DNA from: Patescibacteria group bacterium
GTDB taxonomy: Bacteria > Patescibacteriota > JABMPQ01 > JAHIRA01
DNA: 64,000 nt
Reading direction: 5' to 3'
NCBI GenBank assembly: GCA_018818205.1
Contig: JAHISJ010000024.1
Location: forward strand, 17,093-81,092
A program made the position numbers and the translations under genes. Below the pieces are notes generated by a model that had not been told where the DNA came from, ran no database searches, and saw only the letters and a list, made by a program, of their open reading frames with translations. This document shows, piece after piece, positions 781 through 58,516 of this stretch (position 1 is the stretch's first letter; each line of letters begins with the position of its first letter).

Positions 781-1920
781 TTATAATTCTGGAATATCTG
801 GATTTGCGCTTGAAGCAGCATCGCTCGCTGGTGCCTGTGGAGCCTGTCTTTCAGCGCTTTTTTGCTCCTCAACCATTTCTTGGAGTTTTTTCTTTCGTTC
901 TGCAAGCGGAGTAATTTCCTCAGCATCTTCTTTAGCTACCTGCTTTGGTGGTGGAATTGCGGTTGGTTCTTCTGGTATATCTTGAGGAGCTTTAGGCGAT
1001 GCTTCTGCCTCATCCTTTGGTTTTGGAGCTGGCGCTTCTGGCGCTTGTACCGGCAATTTAGGACTTTTCTTTGGAAGCTTTTTGGAAGCTTTTGGTTTTA
1101 ACGGTTTTTCTACCGGGACTGCTGGCTCTTGCTTTTCTGGTACCTTTTGCGCGACGGATACGTCCATCTTTTTTTGTGGTGAAGCCGGAGGCATCTTTGC
1201 TGGCTCATCTAATAGCGCCTCAAGGTCCTTTGGTACTTTTGGCTTAGACGATGGTTTTTGTGGAGCTTCTTGAGCTTCGGGGGGTTTAGCTGCAGGCGCT
1301 TCTGGCTCAGGGACTTTAGGTTTTTGAGGTACCGGACTCGCTACTGGCTCGGGAGGAGCTTTATCCGTTTGCTCAAGCACAGGAGGTGGAGTAACTTCAG
1401 GAGTCGGCTCTGGTGCCTGGGGGACTTGAGGTTCAGGTGTTTGAGCAAGCGGCTCCTCTACAGGCGGAACTTTGGGAAGATCTTGTGCAGGGGCAGGAGC
1501 AGGTGGCTCTTGTGGAGCTTCTGGTTCTGCCTGTGTTTGAGCTGGTGTTTGAGAAACAGCCTGCGGTGATTCTTCTGCAAGTGACCCCTCGGTTCCAAAG
1601 AATTGATTAAATGTTTGATCAAGCCCTGGCTCAACTGACTCCGCAAGAGGCGGTTCCTGTGCAGAGGTATCATCTTGTAACTGTCCCTGGAGTACATCAC
1701 GTACTTCACCAAGTGTTTGTTCCGGTTCAGGAGGTGGAGCCTGTGCTGCTTGCGGCTGCTCAGTGTATTCCTGCGGGGGAGTATCTGCAGGACCTGGCAC
1801 AGGTGCTTGACTTGGAGCTTGGCCTTGTGGTGGCAAGCCTTGCATATTCATGCCTTGCTCATCTTGTGGAAGGTCGGGCTCCCCTTGAGGAGTATTTGGT
1901 GGAAGATTTTGATCTGCCAT
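781..1920 (-). CDS. Pro/Glu/Ala/Gln-rich low-complexity (intrinsically disordered) protein, hypothetical
   Basis: Longest ORF (379 aa) in a locally GC-rich, low-complexity stretch. PEPEAPQEPP-type repeats and K/P-rich segments. No signal peptide or TM seen. Several overlapping alternative-frame ORFs are compositional artefacts. Confidence 0.5.
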   Translation of the reverse strand: MADQNLPPNTPQGEPDLPQDEQGMNMQGLPPQGQAPSQAPVPGPADTPPQEYTEQPQAAQAPPPEPEQTLGEVRDVLQGQLQDDTSAQEPPLAESVEPGLDQTFNQFFGTEGSLAEESPQAVSQTPAQTQAEPEAPQEPPAPAPAQDLPKVPPVEEPLAQTPEPQVPQAPEPTPEVTPPPVLEQTDKAPPEPVASPVPQKPKVPEPEAPAAKPPEAQEAPQKPSSKPKVPKDLEALLDEPAKMPPASPQKKMDVSVAQKVPEKQEPAVPVEKPLKPKASKKLPKKSPKLPVQAPEAPAPKPKDEAEASPKAPQDIPEEPTAIPPPKQVAKEDAEEITPLAERKKKLQEMVEEQKSAERQAPQAPASDAASSANPDIPEL

Positions 1921-2216
1921 TGATTTATTTTTATCGTTTGTAATCTAACACGAACCGTATAGCACCATTGTATCATGTGTGAGTAAGCACTGTCGATTCA
2001 CTGATCTGTGTCCTAAATTGACAAGTTATCAACACTCCACCGTAAACTTGATCCATGCTATACTTGAAATGTAAAAGGCTGCTGGTTACTTGAACGGTCA
2101 AAATAACCGTCAAGTGTCCTTTGGGGGTAAGGCTAAGAACAAAAAGAAATACCCACGGGCACGGGTTTTTCTTAGTAATACCCCTTGAGTAATAAGTAAA
2201 TTGGTAGCTTTTTACA

Positions 2217-2250
2217 TAAAAAAATACGATAGTAGTATCGTATTTTTTTT
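2217..2250. terminator. Bidirectional rho-independent terminator
   Basis: Hairpin aaaatacgat-agta-atcgtatttt flanked by A- and T-runs. Lies downstream of the minus-strand gene 2336..3466. Confidence 0.5.
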
Positions 2251-2262
2251 ATTGATTATCAT

Positions 2263-2330
2263 CCCCTCCCCTTGACTAAGGGGAGGGTTAGGGTGGGGTT
2301 CTTCCTCCCCCTTAGAAAAGGGGGAGGAAG
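2263..2330. repeat. G/C-rich palindromic repeat element, copy 1 (module A cccctcccctt-gactaa-ggggaggg + ttagggtggggttctt + module B variant cctccccctt-agaaa-agggggagg)
   Basis: Near-identical copies at 3551-3582 and 4134-4238. Perfect inverted repeats stand out in an AT-rich genome. Confidence 0.7.
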
Positions 2331-2335
2331 CTGTA

Positions 2336-3466
2336 CTACAAATTCAAAAGCACCCACTTTTGAAACACTGGGTCTGTATAGTAATACCTGCGGTTCTCTT
2401 TATATAAAATCCTAAAGCCCAACAGTTCAGAAAGATAATGCTGCAGAGCTCCTTGCGACATGGAGAGCATGCGTGCAATTTCCATCTGTGTTAGTCCTTC
2501 TCTGGATGCCAAAAATCGAATCAGTAATTTGAGCGGACCATGATACCGTGCCTTAAGAAGCGTGACGTCGTACAGTGACTGTAGAAAAAGTGCAAGCGTT
2601 GTCTCACTCTTAAGCGCTCGCTCAAAGAGCTGATTCACCGTCTCGTCATCAAGCGTGCCTTTTCCTCTAAAGAGCCGCACAATGGATTTAAGATAAAACG
2701 GATGTCCTGATGAGAGCTCAACCAAAATCTTTTTCATGTCAGGACCAATGTGCTTCATGCGTGCAGTAAGAAATGCCTCTGATTCCTGATAGGTGAGTGG
2801 CCCCAGCTCATAGTACTCAGGATTCTGCAACGGGCACTGATCAACGTCAAGCATATCATCATAGGAGACTCCATACGAGGTTGAAAGGATTGAGGTGATA
2901 CTATTACTAAACAATGTCCGACACACATGCGTATGAGCCAAACTCATATTTCTAAAAAGTGAAAGAGAAAAGAGCTCAGAGACGTTGTCGATTATATATA
3001 ATGGCTTCATGCCAAGTTCTGTCGTAACCTTTGCCGGAATGCTGAGCATAACAAGAAGGGTATCAAGCCGTGACTGATCAGAAGAAGCATTAAAAAGATG
3101 AACAAACCGATCGTCTGCCATACACTCATCCAATGAAGCCGGAATAATAGAAAGTGCATCTGAACCAACATCTAAACTCCTAATGTGCGCCTGAATACTA
3201 TATAATCCTTCCTCAACAAATCGCTTTCCAAAATCCTCGGGCGTAGTGACGAGCCGCTTAAAATCGTACATAAGGGGTACTATCTCCGGATCTTTAATGA
3301 GATTGCGTGTTGCAAACTTAAGAAGCGTCGTCTTGCCAATTCTTGGTAGTCCAAAAAAAAGCAACGTTTGTACCTTGCCGTGCCGAGAAAGCTCAATGGC
3401 ATGCAAAATATCATTTAACTCTCGTTTTCTCCCTACAAATGCGGGCTTCTTTGTTTGTGTTGCCAT
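2336..3466 (-). CDS. P-loop ATPase of the ATPase_2 (PF01637-like) family with C-terminal DUF234-like winged-helix
   Basis: Walker A GLPRIGKTTLL. C-terminal LTQMEIARML...YYYTDPVFQKWVLLN resembles the DUF234 wHTH ending. Start placed at MATQTKKP (ORF-track start 3496 is 10 codons further upstream). Confidence 0.65.
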   Translation of the reverse strand: MATQTKKPAFVGRKRELNDILHAIELSRHGKVQTLLFFGLPRIGKTTLLKFATRNLIKDPEIVPLMYDFKRLVTTPEDFGKRFVEEGLYSIQAHIRSLDVGSDALSIIPASLDECMADDRFVHLFNASSDQSRLDTLLVMLSIPAKVTTELGMKPLYIIDNVSELFSLSLFRNMSLAHTHVCRTLFSNSITSILSTSYGVSYDDMLDVDQCPLQNPEYYELGPLTYQESEAFLTARMKHIGPDMKKILVELSSGHPFYLKSIVRLFRGKGTLDDETVNQLFERALKSETTLALFLQSLYDVTLLKARYHGPLKLLIRFLASREGLTQMEIARMLSMSQGALQHYLSELLGFRILYKENRRYYYTDPVFQKWVLLNL

Positions 3467-3477
3467 TTTTTTGATGT

Positions 3478-3507
3478 TTACACACGTTATACACACGTCT
3501 ACACAAA
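3478..3507. promoter_or_regulatory. Three tandem TACACA(CGT) direct repeats at the 5' end of the ATPase gene (possible operator)
   Basis: ttacacacgt / tatacacacgt / ctacacaaat occur consecutively immediately upstream of the proposed start at 3466. Confidence 0.3.
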
Positions 3508-3550
3508 TAATATCAATCTATCGTATTTTTGTAAAATGGAGATTTCTTAT

Positions 3551-3582
3551 GGTCCCTCCCCCCTTAAAAAGGGGGAGGGACC
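3551..3582. repeat. G/C-rich palindromic repeat element, copy 2 (module B: ggtccctcccccc-ttaaaaa-gggggagggacc)
   Basis: Perfect 12-bp inverted repeat, identical to the core at 4213-4238. Confidence 0.7.
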
Positions 3583-3594
3583 ATTATTGCCAAA

Positions 3595-3630
3595 TAAAAA
3601 ACCCATATGCGTCTGGCGACAACATATGGG
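3595..3630 (-). terminator. Rho-independent terminator for the 3676..3975 gene
   Basis: On the minus strand: hairpin cccatatg-N13-catatggg followed by TTTTTTATTT. Confidence 0.55.
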
Positions 3631-3675
3631 CTCTTCCTCAATGGATTGCTCCAAAGAGGGGGAAGGAAGGGAAGG

Positions 3676-3975
3676 CTAGAAGTCTTCCTTAGCTCGGACG
3701 AGCTTTGGACGAGAGTTTATTTTTTTGGCGATGGCGGTCTTTTTTGGCAGAACTCTGCAGATGCGGCTGCAACTGACATGGGTTGTGCCAGTGCGTCCGT
3801 CTTTCACAAAGACAGTACCTGCAGGACATCGCTTCAACACCTGTGAGCAACTTGAACGAAGATCCGCGTTGTAGATACCACCATAAATATAGAGGTACTT
3901 ACTTTGCTTTGCTTCACCCACACTACAAATGCTCATGCCAATCGCAAAAACCACCAAACAAATCGCTTTCTTCAT
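3676..3975 (-). CDS. Small Cys-rich secreted protein, hypothetical
   Basis: N-terminal signal peptide MKKAICLVVFAIGMSICSVGEA. Eight Cys. AAGGAG SD 8 nt upstream. Perfect sigma70 promoter upstream. Confidence 0.6.
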   Translation of the reverse strand: MKKAICLVVFAIGMSICSVGEAKQSKYLYIYGGIYNADLRSSCSQVLKRCPAGTVFVKDGRTGTTHVSCSRICRVLPKKTAIAKKINSRPKLVRAKEDF

Positions 3976-4055
3976 TTCCCATTCTCCTTCTAATCCAGCA
4001 CTCTTGAAAGAGGCTGGTGTTTTTCAAAGATCTACCCTTATTCAGTATCGGCAGC

Positions 4056-4084
4056 ATTGTACCACATATCTATATATTTGTCAA
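4056..4084 (-). promoter_or_regulatory. Sigma70-type promoter (TTGACA-N17-TACAAT) for the small secreted protein gene
   Basis: Minus-strand TTGACA (4079-4084) and TACAAT (4056-4061) with a 17-nt spacer. Confidence 0.55.
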
Positions 4085-4133
4085 GGGTTTTAGGTGTTAT
4101 TTGGAAGGAAATGGCTTGAAATAGGGGTTTTAT

Positions 4134-4238
4134 TCCTCCCTCCCCTTTACTAAGAGGAGGGTTAGGGTGGGGTTCTTAACCTGCGTTGCTTACACATACA
4201 CCCCCTCCTAACCTCCCCCTTAAAAAGGGGGAGGGACC
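4134..4238. repeat. G/C-rich palindromic repeat element, copy 3 (module A + 36-bp insert + module B)
   Basis: cctccctcccctt-tactaa-gaggagggttagggtggggttctt ... tcccccttaaaaagggggagggacc. Shares cores of 23 bp or longer with copies 1 and 2. Confidence 0.7.
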
Positions 4239-4261
4239 ATTCCAGAGATTTTTTTGTGACT

Positions 4262-4290
4262 AAAAAAACGCCCTTATCAATAGGCGTCGG
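4262..4290 (-). terminator. Rho-independent terminator downstream of ribH
   Basis: Minus-strand hairpin acgcc-N9-ggcgt followed by a T7 run. Confidence 0.45.
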
Positions 4291-8595: not shown

Positions 8596-11292
8596 CTACG
8601 CCTCCTTTTTTTGTATCTTTCGTATTCGTGCAATAAATATCCATTTGACGACTTCAATAACAACAATAACAACGATACTGCCAATAAGCACAACCATCCA
8701 GTCGTAAAAACTCAGTGGAACCGTTTTAAAAAGTCTTTGAAGCGGTCCAAAGTACACCGCAAGAATCTGCAAAGCGAATCCACCAAACACCGCAACTAAA
8801 AGCCATTTATTTGAAAAGAACTTCTCATGAAACAAGGTGTGCCTGAGGCTCCTCACACTAAACACATAGAGAAGGGAATCAAACGCCAAAAAGGAGAAAC
8901 AGATCGTCCGTACCTCAGCAAGGTCCATACCCATAATTGTATAGAGCACATAAAAAAGCGCTAACGTGCCCAGGCCGGTCACCGCACCGATAATGCCAAT
9001 AAGCACTTTCATCTCCCGGTTAATCACCGGTTCATTTTTTGCTCGTGGCGGCTCCTTCATTGCTTCTTTGTCAACCGGGTCAAATGCTAAGGCCATGCCA
9101 GGGAATCCATCATCAACTAAATTAATCCAAAGAATTTGCGTAGGAAGTAAGGGGACTGGCAGACCTAAAACAAGAGCTCCAAAGATAAGTATGAGCTCAG
9201 AAAAAGAATCGGAGAGAAGATATAAAACGACCTTTCTAATATTGTCAAAAATACGTCTCCCTTCTTCAACAGCGGCAACAATCGTTTTAAAATTGTCATT
9301 AATTAAGATCATATTAGATGTTTGCTGCGCGACTTCTGTTCCAGACCCCATAGCAACACCAATATCCGCCCTTTTAAGCGCCGGACCATCATTTACTCCA
9401 TCACCCGTCATGGCTACCACTTGATTGTCTTTTTGAAGTACCTCGACAATCTTGAGCTTGTGAACCGGTGCAACACGTGCAAACACTTTTGCCTTCTCTA
9501 CACGCTCTCTTAGCTTCTCCTCATCATCTTGAATCGATTCAAACTCAGCGCCATCAATGACTTCGTCGTCACTTTGGACAGTTAGACCCACTTCATTTGC
9601 GATGTTTCTTGCCGTCATTTTATGATCACCCGTAATCATTTTTACACCCACGCCTGCAGCATATGTTGCTTCAATAGCTTCCTTGATGTTTTTCCTAATA
9701 GGATCTCGTATAGCAATGAGTGATAAAAAGGTAAGGTTTTGTCCTTTGTCTTTGGAAAGATCAAACTCCTCCTCATCATCATCCACATCAACTTCCTTAT
9801 ACCCAAGCGCAATAACTCTAAACCCCTTGGTACTCAGTTCCTTGTTTTTCTCACCAATTATACTCCTGTCTTCTTCAGAGATGGAGACACGCTCACCACC
9901 TTTATAAATATGCGTTGAATACGTCAGTACCCGCTCAGCCGTTCCCTTCTCTAGAACCAAAACTCGATCATCGTCCTCTTTGTCCTTATGCGCAGTCACC
10001 ATATATTTGATGTACGAGTCAAACGGAATCTCGTCAATAAGTTCAAACTGCTTCTCGAGCACACACTTGCTCAAATCGTATTTACCCGCAAGATCAAAGA
10101 GCGCTTTTTCTGTAGTATCACCTAGTGCCTTTTCGCACGCACCATCAGCATCCTCGACAATTAAATCATTACACAAAGCTGATACTAAGAAGGAGTAATA
10201 AAATACCTTGTCCGACTCAATCTGGTCTTTAGGAATATCTGAAACGGGGTACTCTCCGTCAACGGTCACGAGCTTTTCTGCCTCCATCTCACCAGTAGTA
10301 ATGGTTCCTGTTTTGTCAGTACAAATAACGGTCGTACTTCCAAGAGTCTCAGCCGCAACAAGCTCACGGACAATTGCCTTTTTCTTTAAAATCTGTCGCA
10401 TGCCAACCGCAAGAATAATAGTAACCGAGATAACCATGCCCTCCGGAATGGAGCTTACCGCAAGTACCACCGCAAAATCAAACATCTCGTGAATATCACG
10501 TTTTAAAAGAATGCCGGTTACAAATACGATTATACAACAGATAATCACCACAATGGAAATCCAAATACTGAGCTCAGCCATACGTTTTTGAAGTGGTGTT
10601 GATTCCTCCTTGGTTTCTTCAACCAGCTCAGCAATCTGACCCACCTCAGTGTGAGCTCCAGTTGTTGTGACCACCGCCAAAGCTTTTCCGTTCGTAACCA
10701 CTGTACTTTGATATACCATGTTTTTTCTATCGCCAAGTGGCGTATCCTCATCTAACACCGCATCAAACTCTTTGTTTTCCGACCGGGATTCACCGGTAAG
10801 CACCGTCTCTTTGGTCTCAAAACGATTGCCGTCTAAAATCCTAGCATCAGCAGGAATCCGATCTCCCGCGTCGAGGTAAATAATGTCGCCGGGTACCAAG
10901 TCCTTTGCGTCAATTTCTTTGACCGCACCGTCTCTCAGCACCTTTGCCTTAAACACAACCACCTCTTTAAGCTCAGATATGGTCTTAACGGCTTTCATCT
11001 CCTGAATCACCGAGATAATGATATTGATAACAAGTGCCGCAAGAATGACAATAGCATCCGTTTTTTCACCAAAGAAAAAGGAAATGAACGCAGCAATAAA
11101 CAAGATAATAGTAAAAAGATCTTTAAACTGTCTGAAAAAGACCTTAAAAATCGACGGCGGTTTTTTCTCTTCAAGTTTATTTGGTCCGTACTTTTCTTGG
11201 CGTTTTGCTACATCACTCAAAGAAAGACCCGATTTTTTGTTTGATGAAAGCTCCTTAAGCGCCTCATCTGCTGTTTTTGTATAATATTTCAT
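8596..11292 (-). CDS. P-type cation-transporting ATPase (P2/Ca2+-ATPase-like)
   Basis: DKTGTIT phosphorylation motif, TGDGVNDGPALKRADIGVAMG hinge motif, about 10 TM segments, 898 aa. Confidence 0.9.
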   Translation of the reverse strand: MKYYTKTADEALKELSSNKKSGLSLSDVAKRQEKYGPNKLEEKKPPSIFKVFFRQFKDLFTIILFIAAFISFFFGEKTDAIVILAALVINIIISVIQEMKAVKTISELKEVVVFKAKVLRDGAVKEIDAKDLVPGDIIYLDAGDRIPADARILDGNRFETKETVLTGESRSENKEFDAVLDEDTPLGDRKNMVYQSTVVTNGKALAVVTTTGAHTEVGQIAELVEETKEESTPLQKRMAELSIWISIVVIICCIIVFVTGILLKRDIHEMFDFAVVLAVSSIPEGMVISVTIILAVGMRQILKKKAIVRELVAAETLGSTTVICTDKTGTITTGEMEAEKLVTVDGEYPVSDIPKDQIESDKVFYYSFLVSALCNDLIVEDADGACEKALGDTTEKALFDLAGKYDLSKCVLEKQFELIDEIPFDSYIKYMVTAHKDKEDDDRVLVLEKGTAERVLTYSTHIYKGGERVSISEEDRSIIGEKNKELSTKGFRVIALGYKEVDVDDDEEEFDLSKDKGQNLTFLSLIAIRDPIRKNIKEAIEATYAAGVGVKMITGDHKMTARNIANEVGLTVQSDDEVIDGAEFESIQDDEEKLRERVEKAKVFARVAPVHKLKIVEVLQKDNQVVAMTGDGVNDGPALKRADIGVAMGSGTEVAQQTSNMILINDNFKTIVAAVEEGRRIFDNIRKVVLYLLSDSFSELILIFGALVLGLPVPLLPTQILWINLVDDGFPGMALAFDPVDKEAMKEPPRAKNEPVINREMKVLIGIIGAVTGLGTLALFYVLYTIMGMDLAEVRTICFSFLAFDSLLYVFSVRSLRHTLFHEKFFSNKWLLVAVFGGFALQILAVYFGPLQRLFKTVPLSFYDWMVVLIGSIVVIVVIEVVKWIFIARIRKIQKKEA

Positions 11293-55765: not shown

Positions 55766-57148
55766 ATGACAAATGAAGAAATATGGCGTGCGACCCTCGC
55801 CGAGCTTGAACTAACACTCAGCAAAGCAAATTTTACAACGTGGTTTAAAAATACCTGCATTCTTTACTGCACTGATGGTGAATTCACTATAGGTGTCCCG
55901 AGTGGGTTTATTAAAGAATGGCTGCAAAATAAGTACCACAAAAATATTTCAACTGCTCTACAAAATGTGACTAATGCACGCATTAGAAAAATTAGTTACG
56001 AGCTGAATATTCACTTCAAAAAACAAGAGAGTACTCCTTCTGCGTTGCCACAAAAAGAATCACTAACCGCCCCCTTCACTCAATCCGTGCAACCTGAAGA
56101 AAGTAAAGGGCTTAACCCAAAATATACTTTCAATGCATTTATTGTCGGTTCCTCAAACGAACTCGCTCGTGCTGCTGCAGCTGCCGTTGCACAAACACCA
56201 GGGTCAATTTATAACCCACTCTTTATTTATGGAGGTGTAGGGCTTGGAAAAACACATCTCGTACAAGCGGTCGGAAATCAACTTCGTGAAAAAACCCCAA
56301 ATGCGAATGTAGTGTATGTAACCAGTGAAAAATTTACCAACGATTTTATCGAGTACATACGAAGTGGTAAAGGAAAAACAACAACCCCTTCATCTTTTAA
56401 GAACACCTATCGCTCTGCAGATATCCTCATCGTAGATGACATCCAATTTATAAGTGGCAAAGAAGGAACTCAAGAACAATTCTTCCATACCTTTAACGAA
56501 CTTTACCACAACAACAAACAAATTATTCTCACTTCAGATAGACCCCCTAAAGCAATCAACGCTCTTGAAGACCGCCTTCTCTCACGTTTTGAGGGTGGGA
56601 TGGTCGCAGATGTAGGAATCCCTAACCAAGAGACTAGAAAAGCAATTCTTGAATGTAAATGCAAAGAAAGAGGCGTGGAATTTTCTAACGACATACTTAC
56701 ATACATCGCAGAACACATCCAAAACAATATCAGAGAGCTTGAGGGAGCCTTGAGTCGCTTAATCGCACATTGTCAATTAAGCAATATTGTTCCCACGATT
56801 GACACGACGAAATCAGTGCTCGCCGCGACTATTACTAAGCCGCAGACGGAGCATATGTCACCCAAACAAATTCTTGAAATCGTTTCAACCTTCTATAGTC
56901 TTTCAGCAGACCAACTCATAGCAAAAAATCGCAAAAAGGAAATTGCATGGCCTAGACAAATCGCCATGTTCCTCATGAGAGAGGAATCTAAAACAAGCTA
57001 CCCTACAATAGGACAAGAGCTTGGTGGTCGTGACCACACCACTGCTATGCATGCGTACGAGAAAGTATCACGTGCCCTAGAAGAAGATGAAAATCTCAGA
57101 CAAGAAATTGATATCATCAGACAAAAACTATATTCTCAGGTACACTAA
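55766..57148 (+). CDS. dnaA: Chromosomal replication initiator protein DnaA
   Basis: AAA+ Walker A GGVGLGKTHL, Walker B IVDDIQF. C-terminal DnaA-box binding domain (AWPRQIAMFLMRE...). Confidence 0.95.
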   Translation: MTNEEIWRATLAELELTLSKANFTTWFKNTCILYCTDGEFTIGVPSGFIKEWLQNKYHKNISTALQNVTNARIRKISYELNIHFKKQESTPSALPQKESLTAPFTQSVQPEESKGLNPKYTFNAFIVGSSNELARAAAAAVAQTPGSIYNPLFIYGGVGLGKTHLVQAVGNQLREKTPNANVVYVTSEKFTNDFIEYIRSGKGKTTTPSSFKNTYRSADILIVDDIQFISGKEGTQEQFFHTFNELYHNNKQIILTSDRPPKAINALEDRLLSRFEGGMVADVGIPNQETRKAILECKCKERGVEFSNDILTYIAEHIQNNIRELEGALSRLIAHCQLSNIVPTIDTTKSVLAATITKPQTEHMSPKQILEIVSTFYSLSADQLIAKNRKKEIAWPRQIAMFLMREESKTSYPTIGQELGGRDHTTAMHAYEKVSRALEEDENLRQEIDIIRQKLYSQVH

Positions 57149-57382
57149 TTGCTAGTGGATTCCTTGTGTATAAGCTCTGAATTTCTCTCATGTTATCCAC
57201 TATTTTTTGCCTCTCTTGTTTCACTTCTTTTTTTCTCCACTTTTCCCTCACCTATTATCCCTACCACTATCCACACAGACCTTCTGGCGAATACGGCTTG
57301 AACAAGGAAAGAAAAAAGTTATCCACCAGTTTCCACAGGCTTATGTATTATTACTATATTTAATATATACTTATATACATTA
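57149..57382. promoter_or_regulatory. Putative oriC: DnaA-box cluster plus AT-rich unwinding element between dnaA and dnaN
   Basis: Boxes TTATCCACt (57193), cTATCCACA (57267), TTATCCACC (57319), gTTtCCACA (57329), all same orientation. Then AT-rich run ttatgtattattactatatttaatatatacttatatacattaat (57341-57382). Confidence 0.65.
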
Positions 57383-58516
57383 ATGACATTTGAGTGCACG
57401 AAGGAAAACTTGCAGCATGCGTTAGCAATAAATATGCGGGGGATAGACAATAAGGCCTCTTTGCCTATTTTGTCACACATACTTTTTGAAGCAAGGGAGA
57501 AGCAGCTAAAACTACTAACGACAAATTTGGAAATTGGCATCACCTCCTACGTGAGTGGTGTAGTAAAAGAGGAAGGTAGATGCGCTGTTCCTGCAAAAAT
57601 ACTATACGACTATATCGCCACAATGCCGCTTAAAAAAGTGACTCTCACAACAAAGGAAGATGCTCTTATTGTTGAGTCGGATGATTTTTCTACTTCGATC
57701 CAAGGATCCACGGCAGATGATTTTCCTCTTATCCCAGAAATTGAGAAAGCTAACACGGTGTACGTAAGGGGAGATGAAGTTAAACACGCGCTTTCACAAA
57801 TTATTTATGCTGCCTCTCGTGATGAGTCACGGCCAGAACTCGCAGGGATTTATGGTGTATTTTCTAAGAGAGGCATATGCTTTGTTGCAACAGATGGGCA
57901 CCGTCTTGCTGAAGTGACAGTGCCTCTCAGTAAAAAGGCAGAAGAGATAACGTGTATTATTCCCGGGAGAACGGCTCAAGAAATAGTACGTATTCTCCCA
58001 AAAGTGGAAGAGGAAATAGTGTTCAAAATTGACGATGGACAGATTCAATGCACAATACCACATGAGTCCTTCTCTGGCGGAAGAACAGAGCTTGTCTCAA
58101 AACTTGTAAACGGAAAATATCCTGAATACCAGGCAGTTATCCCTGAGGATTATAAAGCTTCAGTAGTGATCGACAGGCAACGGTTTATTAATTCTCTAAA
58201 AACATCCAGTCTTTTTTCAAAAAGCGATACAAATGAGGTGCAAGTTACCTTGGATAAGAAAAAAAAGAGAATGGATATTTCTGCTGAGGCATCAAGCGTA
58301 GGGAGCAATGTATCTCGCGTTGAGCTTGAAGATATTACAGGCACAGATCTTTCCATTTCTTTTAACGTGCAGTATTTGCTTGATGGACTTTCAGTTATTG
58401 ATACTCCTCAGGTGAATATGTCTTTTTCTGAAGAAGGGGGCGCTGCTCTTATTACACCAAAACAAAAACAGGACACTCTGTTTCGCTATGTGGTTATGCC
58501 ACTTGATGTAAATTAA
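57383..58516 (+). CDS. dnaN: DNA polymerase III beta sliding clamp
   Basis: 377 aa, three-domain clamp. N-terminal MTFECTKENLQHAL...LPILSHILFEA is typical. Confidence 0.9.
   Translation: MTFECTKENLQHALAINMRGIDNKASLPILSHILFEAREKQLKLLTTNLEIGITSYVSGVVKEEGRCAVPAKILYDYIATMPLKKVTLTTKEDALIVESDDFSTSIQGSTADDFPLIPEIEKANTVYVRGDEVKHALSQIIYAASRDESRPELAGIYGVFSKRGICFVATDGHRLAEVTVPLSKKAEEITCIIPGRTAQEIVRILPKVEEEIVFKIDDGQIQCTIPHESFSGGRTELVSKLVNGKYPEYQAVIPEDYKASVVIDRQRFINSLKTSSLFSKSDTNEVQVTLDKKKKRMDISAEASSVGSNVSRVELEDITGTDLSISFNVQYLLDGLSVIDTPQVNMSFSEEGGAALITPKQKQDTLFRYVVMPLDVN

Follow-up and report, generated by a model that had tools for sequence, protein, structure and literature searches.

A cluster of intergenic palindromes in a Patescibacteria genome as probable copies of a dispersed triplex-motif repeat of the BoxC/PIT class

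In a stretch of 64,000 nucleotides from a Patescibacteria group bacterium (assembly GCA_018818205.1, contig JAHISJ010000024.1, positions 17,093 to 81,092; the whole stretch is called the window here), five G/C-rich palindromes lie at positions 2264-2329, 3549-3584 and 4138-4236, around a gene for a P-loop ATPase and a small open reading frame (ORF). An earlier reading, made from the sequence alone, regarded them as a repeat family similar to repetitive extragenic palindromes (REPs) or miniature inverted-repeat transposable elements (MITEs), and proposed that they could bracket an inserted cassette, or act as attenuators or protein-binding sites. This raises the question of what kind of element the palindromes are, and whether they have anything to do with the genes that they surround. 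In this study I argue that they are very probably copies of a dispersed non-coding element of the BoxC/PIT/intrastrand triplex motif type (class II purine motif).

All palindromic modules of the sequence-only reading are present at essentially the coordinates it gave, as seen in the sequence and in a repeat analysis, and as it had described, they fill all three intergenic gaps of a 2-kb segment and occur nowhere else in the window. The pattern CCTCCCC-N4-14-GGGGAGG has 4 matches in the 64 kb and 0 in 100 shuffles, while GGGTTAGGGTGGGGTTCTT matches twice in the window and not at all in the shuffles. Three of the palindromes, A1, A2 and B2, are full units (Table 1). Read on one strand, such a unit has first the pyrimidine arm CCCTCCCC, from which a variable loop leads to the purine arm GGGGAGGG; a TTA loop then joins this to a third block GGG[T/A]GGGG, the tail, which in all three mirrors the purine arm. 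Set antiparallel to GGGGAGGG, the third block makes up eight triads, seven of the form G*G.C and one T*A.T or A*A.T, and the register of A1 reaches ten. A1 and A2 share 95% identity over 40 nt, and B2 is a unit of this kind on the opposite strand. Together A2 and B2 form a tail-to-tail inverted pair, so that 4137-4236 is an inverted repeat with 37-nt arms in which A2 and its tail face an inverted tail and B2, and the region 4130-4245 folds into a single long hairpin (-52.4 / -58.1 kcal/mol, z ~-4.2).

A triplex-rule scan of the window reports A1 and B2 alone, both perfect, where shuffled windows average 0.01 sites. Both agree with the class II purine motif over 8 triads without a mismatch, or over 10 and 9, respectively, if extended, and with 10-nt blocks their stems and loops (GACT and TTA in A1, TTT and TTA in B2) stay within the ITxF definition of a triplex motif (stem of 6-15 nt, at most 1 mismatch, loops of 1-6 nt). 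A2 is borderline and falls outside the limit of one mismatch in the scan, as its single substitution breaks one pair and one triad at the same time.

The two remaining palindromes, B0 and B1, I infer to be tail-less hairpin derivatives of full units. B0 adjoins A1 and looks like an inverted-pair partner that has lost its spacer and third strand, whereas B1 looks like a symmetrised copy of B2, to which its right half is identical over 27 nt; B1 folds at -31 to -33 kcal/mol (z ~-4.8). Decay of this kind has a precedent in Escherichia coli, where small deletions leave the hairpin (Holder et al., PMC4666352). A covariance model built from 44 foreign units, none of them from the window, recovers A1, A2 and B2 as full units and B0 and B1 only as tail-less hairpins (in B0 the hairpin part alone matches, E ~6e-3). 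With the same model, neither the rest of the window, where the next match has E = 0.9, nor 17 kb of additional contig shows a further unit, so that ~81 kb of the 106.7-kb contig is covered in total.

The geometry of the third block can be examined at those positions that the search pattern had left free. Although any base was allowed there, T or A stands at the core of the third strand in 132 of 134 units, and this base moves in step with the A in the purine arm (123/123 and 9/11). At position 9, among 201 distinct units, a C.G pair occurs together with G in 93 of 95 cases and a T.A pair by T (33) or A (12) in all 45 (Fisher p ~1e-34, with units treated as independent and their kinship ignored). 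This covariation would not be expected of a plain hairpin, a G-quadruplex or a transposase tag, and a simple mirror duplication is argued against because T is commoner than A at the mirror position. The covariation constitutes sequence-level evidence for a triplex geometry over a simple hairpin or G-quadruplex, though no proof of selection, and gives indirect support to the prediction that the single strand of a unit folds into a triplex.

The units are by no means confined to this contig. Searching 596 Gb with the hairpin-plus-tail pattern yields at least 120 genome loci, where about 1 chance match is expected at even base composition. A later estimate puts the chance matches at ~30 in GC-rich genomes and ~0.04 in low-GC genomes, and it is the latter low figure that makes the low-GC matches decisive. 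According to the record titles, the loci come from about ten phylum-level groups, among them Cyanobacteria, Chloroflexota, Planctomycetota, alpha-, beta- and gamma-Proteobacteria, Desulfobacterota, Nitrospirota, Spirochaetota, Bacteroidota and several others. The pattern also matches 60 viral contigs, plasmid records hold units as well, and the B-type core with its TTAAAAA loop is found in 11 metagenome contigs, each time with an inverted tail. The palindromes belong to a genuine repeat family, and the REP/MITE-like label of the sequence-only reading was close. Units occur singly, as inverted pairs or in arrays. In DNA that is ~82% coding, 6 of 57 units lie inside ORFs (6 of 68 under a looser unit definition), and they are commoner in convergent and rarer in divergent gaps. 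With respect to the orientation of genes there is no bias, neither in genomes (11:11) nor in viral contigs (14:17), and an all-against-all clustering of ORFs from 120 loci returned generic families only, with no recurrent neighbour gene. Neither the window nor 18 foreign loci have a match to an Rfam family for the units, at gathering or permissive thresholds.

Some of these loci deserve separate mention. In Photobacterium sp. GJ3, where a replicon has at least 35 matching places, A- and B-type units alternate in arrays with a period of ~140 nt (L254, 12.7-14.0 kb and 20.0-20.8 kb; L255, 3.4-3.9 kb), of up to about ten composite units and similar to BIME clusters. A viral contig of 19.8 kb (L008, L045; IMGVR_UViG_3300025030_000487) holds five perfect CCTCCCC...GGGGAGG palindromes. 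In a betaproteobacterial metagenome-assembled genome, a unit pair has a match to the group II intron D1-D4 family at a distance of ~300 nt (L198, 4443-4573, minus strand; Rfam RF02003, 65.7 bits).

BoxC/PIT/triplex-motif repeats have been known since the 1990s, with no function or means of spread known for them; the BoxC/PIT elements of E. coli were reportedly treated by Hoyne and Maher in 2000. The E. coli motif TM_ECO, with the consensus CCCTCNCCC N3-6 GGGNGAGGG N3 GGGNGAGGG, belongs to the intrastrand triplexes of the class II purine motif (Holder et al. 2015, PMC4666352). The window units share its build: a C-rich arm, a loop, a G-rich purine arm, a 3-nt loop and a mirror G-rich block on one strand, with one T.A pair inside otherwise G.C arms that is read by a T or A of the third block. 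Their second loop is TTA, as in type A of TM_ECO (PMC4666352). Like TM_ECO, which is always intergenic, favours neither strand and is found alone or as two subtypes in an inverted pair (PMC4666352), they are intergenic and without strand bias, and single or paired in inverted combinations of two subtypes; in both, the loops are less conserved than the stems. Both also go unannotated in genome records: a synthetic type-A consensus matches 5409 of 5426 E. coli genomes, at a median of 18 places per genome, none of which is annotated.

There are differences, too. The arms of the present variant (CCCTCCCC / GGGGAGGG / GGG[T/A]GGGG) are 8 nt long, extendable to 9-10, and have no internal N, whereas those of TM_ECO (CCCTCNCCC / GGGNGAGGG) have 9 nt. 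The window pair is tail-to-tail, whereas the E. coli example, a type B and type A pair between trmL and lldD, has its tails outward. Furthermore, this variant is also found on viral contigs and plasmids, whereas TM_ECO has been reported without association to mobile elements (PMC4666352), and it comes here from a metagenome-assembled Patescibacteria genome. An Erwinia copy of the CCCTCCCC-armed variant has no blastn match in the 5,426 E. coli genomes. Judged by their sequence, the window units are a sister variant within the BoxC/PIT structural class and not TM_ECO sensu stricto.

Several points weigh against assigning the palindromes to this class. The window units depart from the TM_ECO consensus itself, as their arms are CCCTCCCC / GGGGAGGG / GGGTGGGG, which makes them the same structural class and another sequence family. 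The third strand is missing in B0 and B1, whose derivation is deduced from sequence identity. The single strand of TM_ECO forms a stable triplex in vitro, but the triplex has been seen in isolated single strands only, and neither duplex DNA nor cells have shown it (PMC4666352). A copying mechanism, and not selection for a triplex, might in principle account for the mirror symmetry, and as the purine arm and the tail also form four G-tracts, a G-quadruplex is possible. Finally, the copies in the source genome were counted over ~81 kb of contig only.

The window is an ordinary piece of chromosome, which includes dnaA, dnaN, gyrA and ftsH, and the genes around the repeats are all on the minus strand. 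In the direction of transcription, ribH and its terminator are followed by B2 and A2, the promoter of the 99-aa ORF, this ORF, a hairpin with a T-run, B1, the promoter of the ATPase gene, this gene, B0 and A1, and a bidirectional terminator. Hence B0 and A1 lie between a stop codon (of the ATPase gene, 7 nt upstream of B0) and its terminator, and both B1 and the A2/B2 pair lie between a terminator and the next promoter; B1 in particular stands between the terminator of the small ORF and the -35 box of the ATPase promoter. The segment is bounded by good terminators, as the sequence-only reading had stated. The ATPase protein has a Walker A motif and Pfam matches below the cut-off to ATPase_2/AAA_16 at its N-terminus and to a MarR/ArsR-type winged helix-turn-helix at its C-terminus, which lends weak support to the label ATPase_2+DUF234-like given before; for DUF234 itself there is no Pfam match. 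In a word search this protein matches itself alone, and an exhaustive HMMER search gives 262 relatives. The orphan ORF, flanked by B1 on one side and A2/B2 on the other, has no match besides itself among 5.8 billion proteins (word search).

Some features of the surroundings stand apart from the repeats. The 379-aa protein encoded beyond the bidirectional terminator is very rich in Pro, Glu and Gln and has no Pfam match. At 2068-2222 lies a conserved non-coding block that resembles the gene of a structured small RNA of ~150 nt, with a promoter-like region from ~2025 and a closing 5'/3' stem followed by a T-run; 44 pairs are predicted, 10 of them with compensatory changes relative to the genome L253 described below, and no Rfam family matches the block, permissive thresholds included. 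The cumulative GC skew has its minimum near 56-58 kb; the origin of chromosomal replication thus appears to fall within the window, ~54 kb from the repeat cluster.

Table 1. Repeat units and neighbouring features of the window, with positions counted from its first nucleotide
Feature	Position	Strand	Description
Unit A1	2264-2300	+	complete triplex-type unit, seen in the sequence; covariance model 51.5 bits, E = 2e-14; perfect in triplex-rule scan
A1, pyrimidine arm	2264-2273	+	CCCTCCCCTT
A1, first loop	2274-2277	+	GACT
A1, purine arm	2278-2287	+	AAGGGGAGGG
A1, second loop	2288-2290	+	TTA
A1, third strand	2291-2300	+	GGGTGGGGTT
B0	2302-2329	no strand	hairpin-only palindrome TTCCTCCCCCTT / AAGGGGGAGGAA, loop AGAA, 13-bp stem
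B1	3549-3584	no strand	near-perfect 36-nt palindrome ATGGTCCCTCCCCCC TTAAAAA GGGGGAGGGACCAT, without third strand
Unit A2	4138-4174	+	triplex-type, one G-to-A substitution in purine arm; covariance model 40.7 bits
A2, pyrimidine arm	4138-4147	+	CCCTCCCCTT, followed by loop TACT
A2, purine arm	4152-4161	+	AAGAGGAGGG
A2, second loop	4162-4164	+	TTA
A2, third strand	4165-4174	+	GGGTGGGGTT
Unit B2	4199-4236	-	complete triplex-type unit; covariance model 36.4 bits; perfect in triplex-rule scan
B2, pyrimidine arm	4234-4225	-	CCTCCCCCTT, followed by loop TTT
B2, purine arm	4221-4212	-	AAGGGGGAGG
B2, second loop	4211-4209	-	TTA
B2, third strand	4208-4199	-	GGAGGGGGTG, with A*A.T triad
ATPase gene, KKH43_05120	2336-3466	-	376 aa, P-loop ATPase with C-terminal winged helix
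Promoter of ATPase gene	3535-3507	-	
Orphan ORF, KKH43_05125	3676-3975	-	99 aa, Shine-Dalgarno, N-terminal hydrophobic segment, own promoter
Promoter of orphan ORF	4084-4056	-	11/12 match
Terminator-like hairpin with T-run	3630-3595	-	3' of orphan ORF
Bidirectional intrinsic-terminator-like hairpin	2218-2249	no strand	A-run, 14-bp stem, T-run; arms 100% complementary; side of Pro-rich gene
Intrinsic terminator after ribH	4267-4288	-	bounds segment at ribH side
Pro/Glu/Gln-rich protein gene	781-1920	-	379 aa
Small-RNA-like block	2068-2222	+	conserved, non-coding
dnaA, dnaN	55766-58516		

Could the repeats delimit a mobile cassette with the ATPase gene and the small ORF, or serve as its recombination sites, in the manner of attC or MITEs? 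They lie in each gap around both genes and nowhere else in the ~81 kb, the ORF is an orphan missing in the nearest relative, and the tail has GTTAGGG, which is near the attC core GTTRRRY. However, the nearest relative available (L253, reached through RibH with 63% identity) has the order flavokinase, ribE, ribH, ATPase homolog and an acidic/Pro-rich protein, with the ATPase ortholog (37.6% identity, E = 7e-71) in the same position between ribH and the Pro-rich gene, and neither the locus comparison nor the covariance model finds a repeat unit there. The ATPase gene is therefore resident and the repeats are later additions, and for this gene the idea of an inserted cassette is largely refuted by the synteny check that the sequence-only reading had proposed. 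An attC site has RYYYAAC at its 5' end and GTTRRRY at its 3' end, an integrase nearby, and cassette genes that vary between relatives; in the pair at 4138-4236 the order of GTTAGG and CCTAAC is the reverse, no integrase or transposase is among the best 25 of the 88 Pfam families of the window, and together with the syntenic ATPase gene this led me to reject an integron attC. Elsewhere, units lie between ordinary housekeeping genes or phage structural genes. The dispersal that had been named as an argument for a generic repeat is indeed seen at the level of the family, in many phyla, phages and plasmids. As an explanation, I consider the mobile cassette very improbable. Equally improbable is that the hairpins work as terminators, attenuators, stabilisers of mRNA 3' ends or operators for the winged-helix ATPase. 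Every hairpin is very stable, B1 is just upstream of the -35 box of the ATPase gene, and B0 and A1 would lie in the 3' untranslated region of this gene before its terminator, where stable hairpins can protect mRNA, as the REPs exemplify. Against this, none of the five hairpins is followed by a U-tract on either strand, separate canonical terminators exist, and a terminator scan reports other sites only, so that intrinsic terminators had to be discarded. Moreover, units of the family are not biased in their orientation to transcription, RNA does not form purine-motif triplexes, and in E. coli the PIT elements act neither as promoters nor as terminators (PMC4666352). L253 retains the ATPase gene without repeats, and the unit sequence is present in many genomes and phages with unrelated neighbours and without this ATPase, which leaves the attenuator or protein-binding role suggested before without support.

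L253 differs from the window in two further respects. The 99-aa ORF is missing, the gap between ribH and the ATPase gene being 163 nt there, and the small-RNA-like block (in L253 at 10918-11082, plus strand) is inverted relative to both flanking genes. Both differences fall at places where the window carries repeats; the ORF may be a local gain between repeat copies, and the locus looks rearrangement-prone. The missing ORF and the inverted block fit the reported link of triplex motifs with local instability, as TM_ECO has been linked to local genomic variability (PMC4666352). However, the window and L253 differ elsewhere too, and the coincidence with the repeat sites is suggestive but no proof. 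As side observations, L253 encodes a similarly acidic low-complexity protein at the place of the Pro-rich gene, and its gap equivalent to that of A1 and B0 (~11105-11290) has an inverted repeat of its own, with ~37-nt arms ~90 nt apart that are largely polypyrimidine/polypurine (GTGCCACCTCCTCCTTCCTCCCGGGCTGGGCTTTGA and its complement).

Alternatively, the units may be classical REPs or the doublets known as REPINs, that is, extragenic palindromes and their inverted doublets copied by a single-copy REP-associated tyrosine transposase (RAYT, of the Y1 HUH type) that acts on single-stranded hairpins. The resemblance is considerable: the units are short, extragenic, palindromic, repeated and found at gene 3' ends, with an asymmetric conserved flank, the A2/B2 doublet makes one long REPIN-like hairpin, the Photobacterium arrays alternate subtypes as BIMEs do, and divergent gaps, which contain promoters, are depleted. 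Yet the tag that identifies REPs, GTAG or CGTC beside the stem (PMC3733652), is missing; instead, 86% of units carry TT or TC as their 5' flank, with TTAG on the 3' side. Neither a motif regex nor tblastn detected a RAYT/Y1 transposase in the window or in the ~250 loci examined, a set that does not include the later viral scan (the queries were E. coli TnpA-REP, its sequence verified against 4ER8, and an approximate IS200 TnpA sequence), and no transposase was found near the units of this set. On Kovacikia, Gloeocapsa and Chloroflexota plasmids, the repeats that flank the RAYT genes are ordinary GTAG REPs and not these units, and the unit-rich Photobacterium replicon has no RAYT match. The triplex-type sequence is common to many phyla, whereas REP families are normally lineage-specific, and the flank mirrors the purine arm with a covariation that REPs would not predict. 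I therefore think it unlikely that the units are REPs or REPINs. About as unlikely, in my view, is a more far-reaching version of the triplex reading, in which the folded triplex itself is recognised and copied by a structure-specific nuclease, a transposase or template switching at stalled forks, and in which the units would have caused the inversion of the small-RNA-like block and the gain of the orphan ORF. It rests on the covariation being kept across about ten phyla and phages. If true, it would mean a mobile or self-propagating class of elements whose hallmark is a non-B DNA structure in place of a transposase-binding sequence.

There is also some likeness to bacterial MITEs and to the small dispersed repeats of Nostoc, as the pair of ~100 nt has 37-nt inverted arms, and pairs in Nostocales are flanked by TA on both sides and nested in larger repeats. 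In contrast to MITEs, no insertion sequence that shares their ends turned up as a parent, single units are common, and evidence for a target-site duplication is confined to the Nostocales, where it suggests insertion with TA duplication in that lineage. The Nostocales pairs (L135, L141, L152, L157, L159, L219, L231, L236) have their tails outward, and the repeats that enclose them have inverted ends of their own; what seemed to be a gene start beside these units turned out to be another nested repeat. An IS605-like element was rejected, as same-orientation pairs ~1.8 kb apart enclose ilvC and phage structural genes, and inverted pairs 2.6-2.9 kb apart enclose ordinary genes. A likeness to KOPS (GGGNAGGG) was set aside on reasoning: the palindromic stem puts the motif on both strands, unlike a polar signal.

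As copies of a BoxC/PIT-type triplex motif, the palindromes would behave as follows, if the in-vitro properties of the E. coli motif hold for them. Once the unit strand is single-stranded, its two arms would pair as a Watson-Crick hairpin, and the third block could return along the purine arm in antiparallel orientation and build triads of the types G*G.C and T*A.T or A*A.T. Three full units (A1 and the A2/B2 pair) and two decayed hairpin derivatives (B0 and B1) would have settled in tolerated intergenic slots, and would be neither the boundaries of a mobile cassette nor needed by the flanking genes. The most likely effect, going by the association published for E. coli, would be a locus prone to slippage or template-switch rearrangements.

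For the annotation of this window, it follows that the repeats do not define a mobile cassette. More generally, unannotated triplex-motif repeats keep being rediscovered as 'odd palindromes', and the covariation in the third block offers a concrete handle for experiments. The class would now include a Patescibacteria host and, as a further variant, the CCCTCCCC-armed units that cyanobacteria, Chloroflexota, Planctomycetota, several proteobacterial classes and phages have in common.

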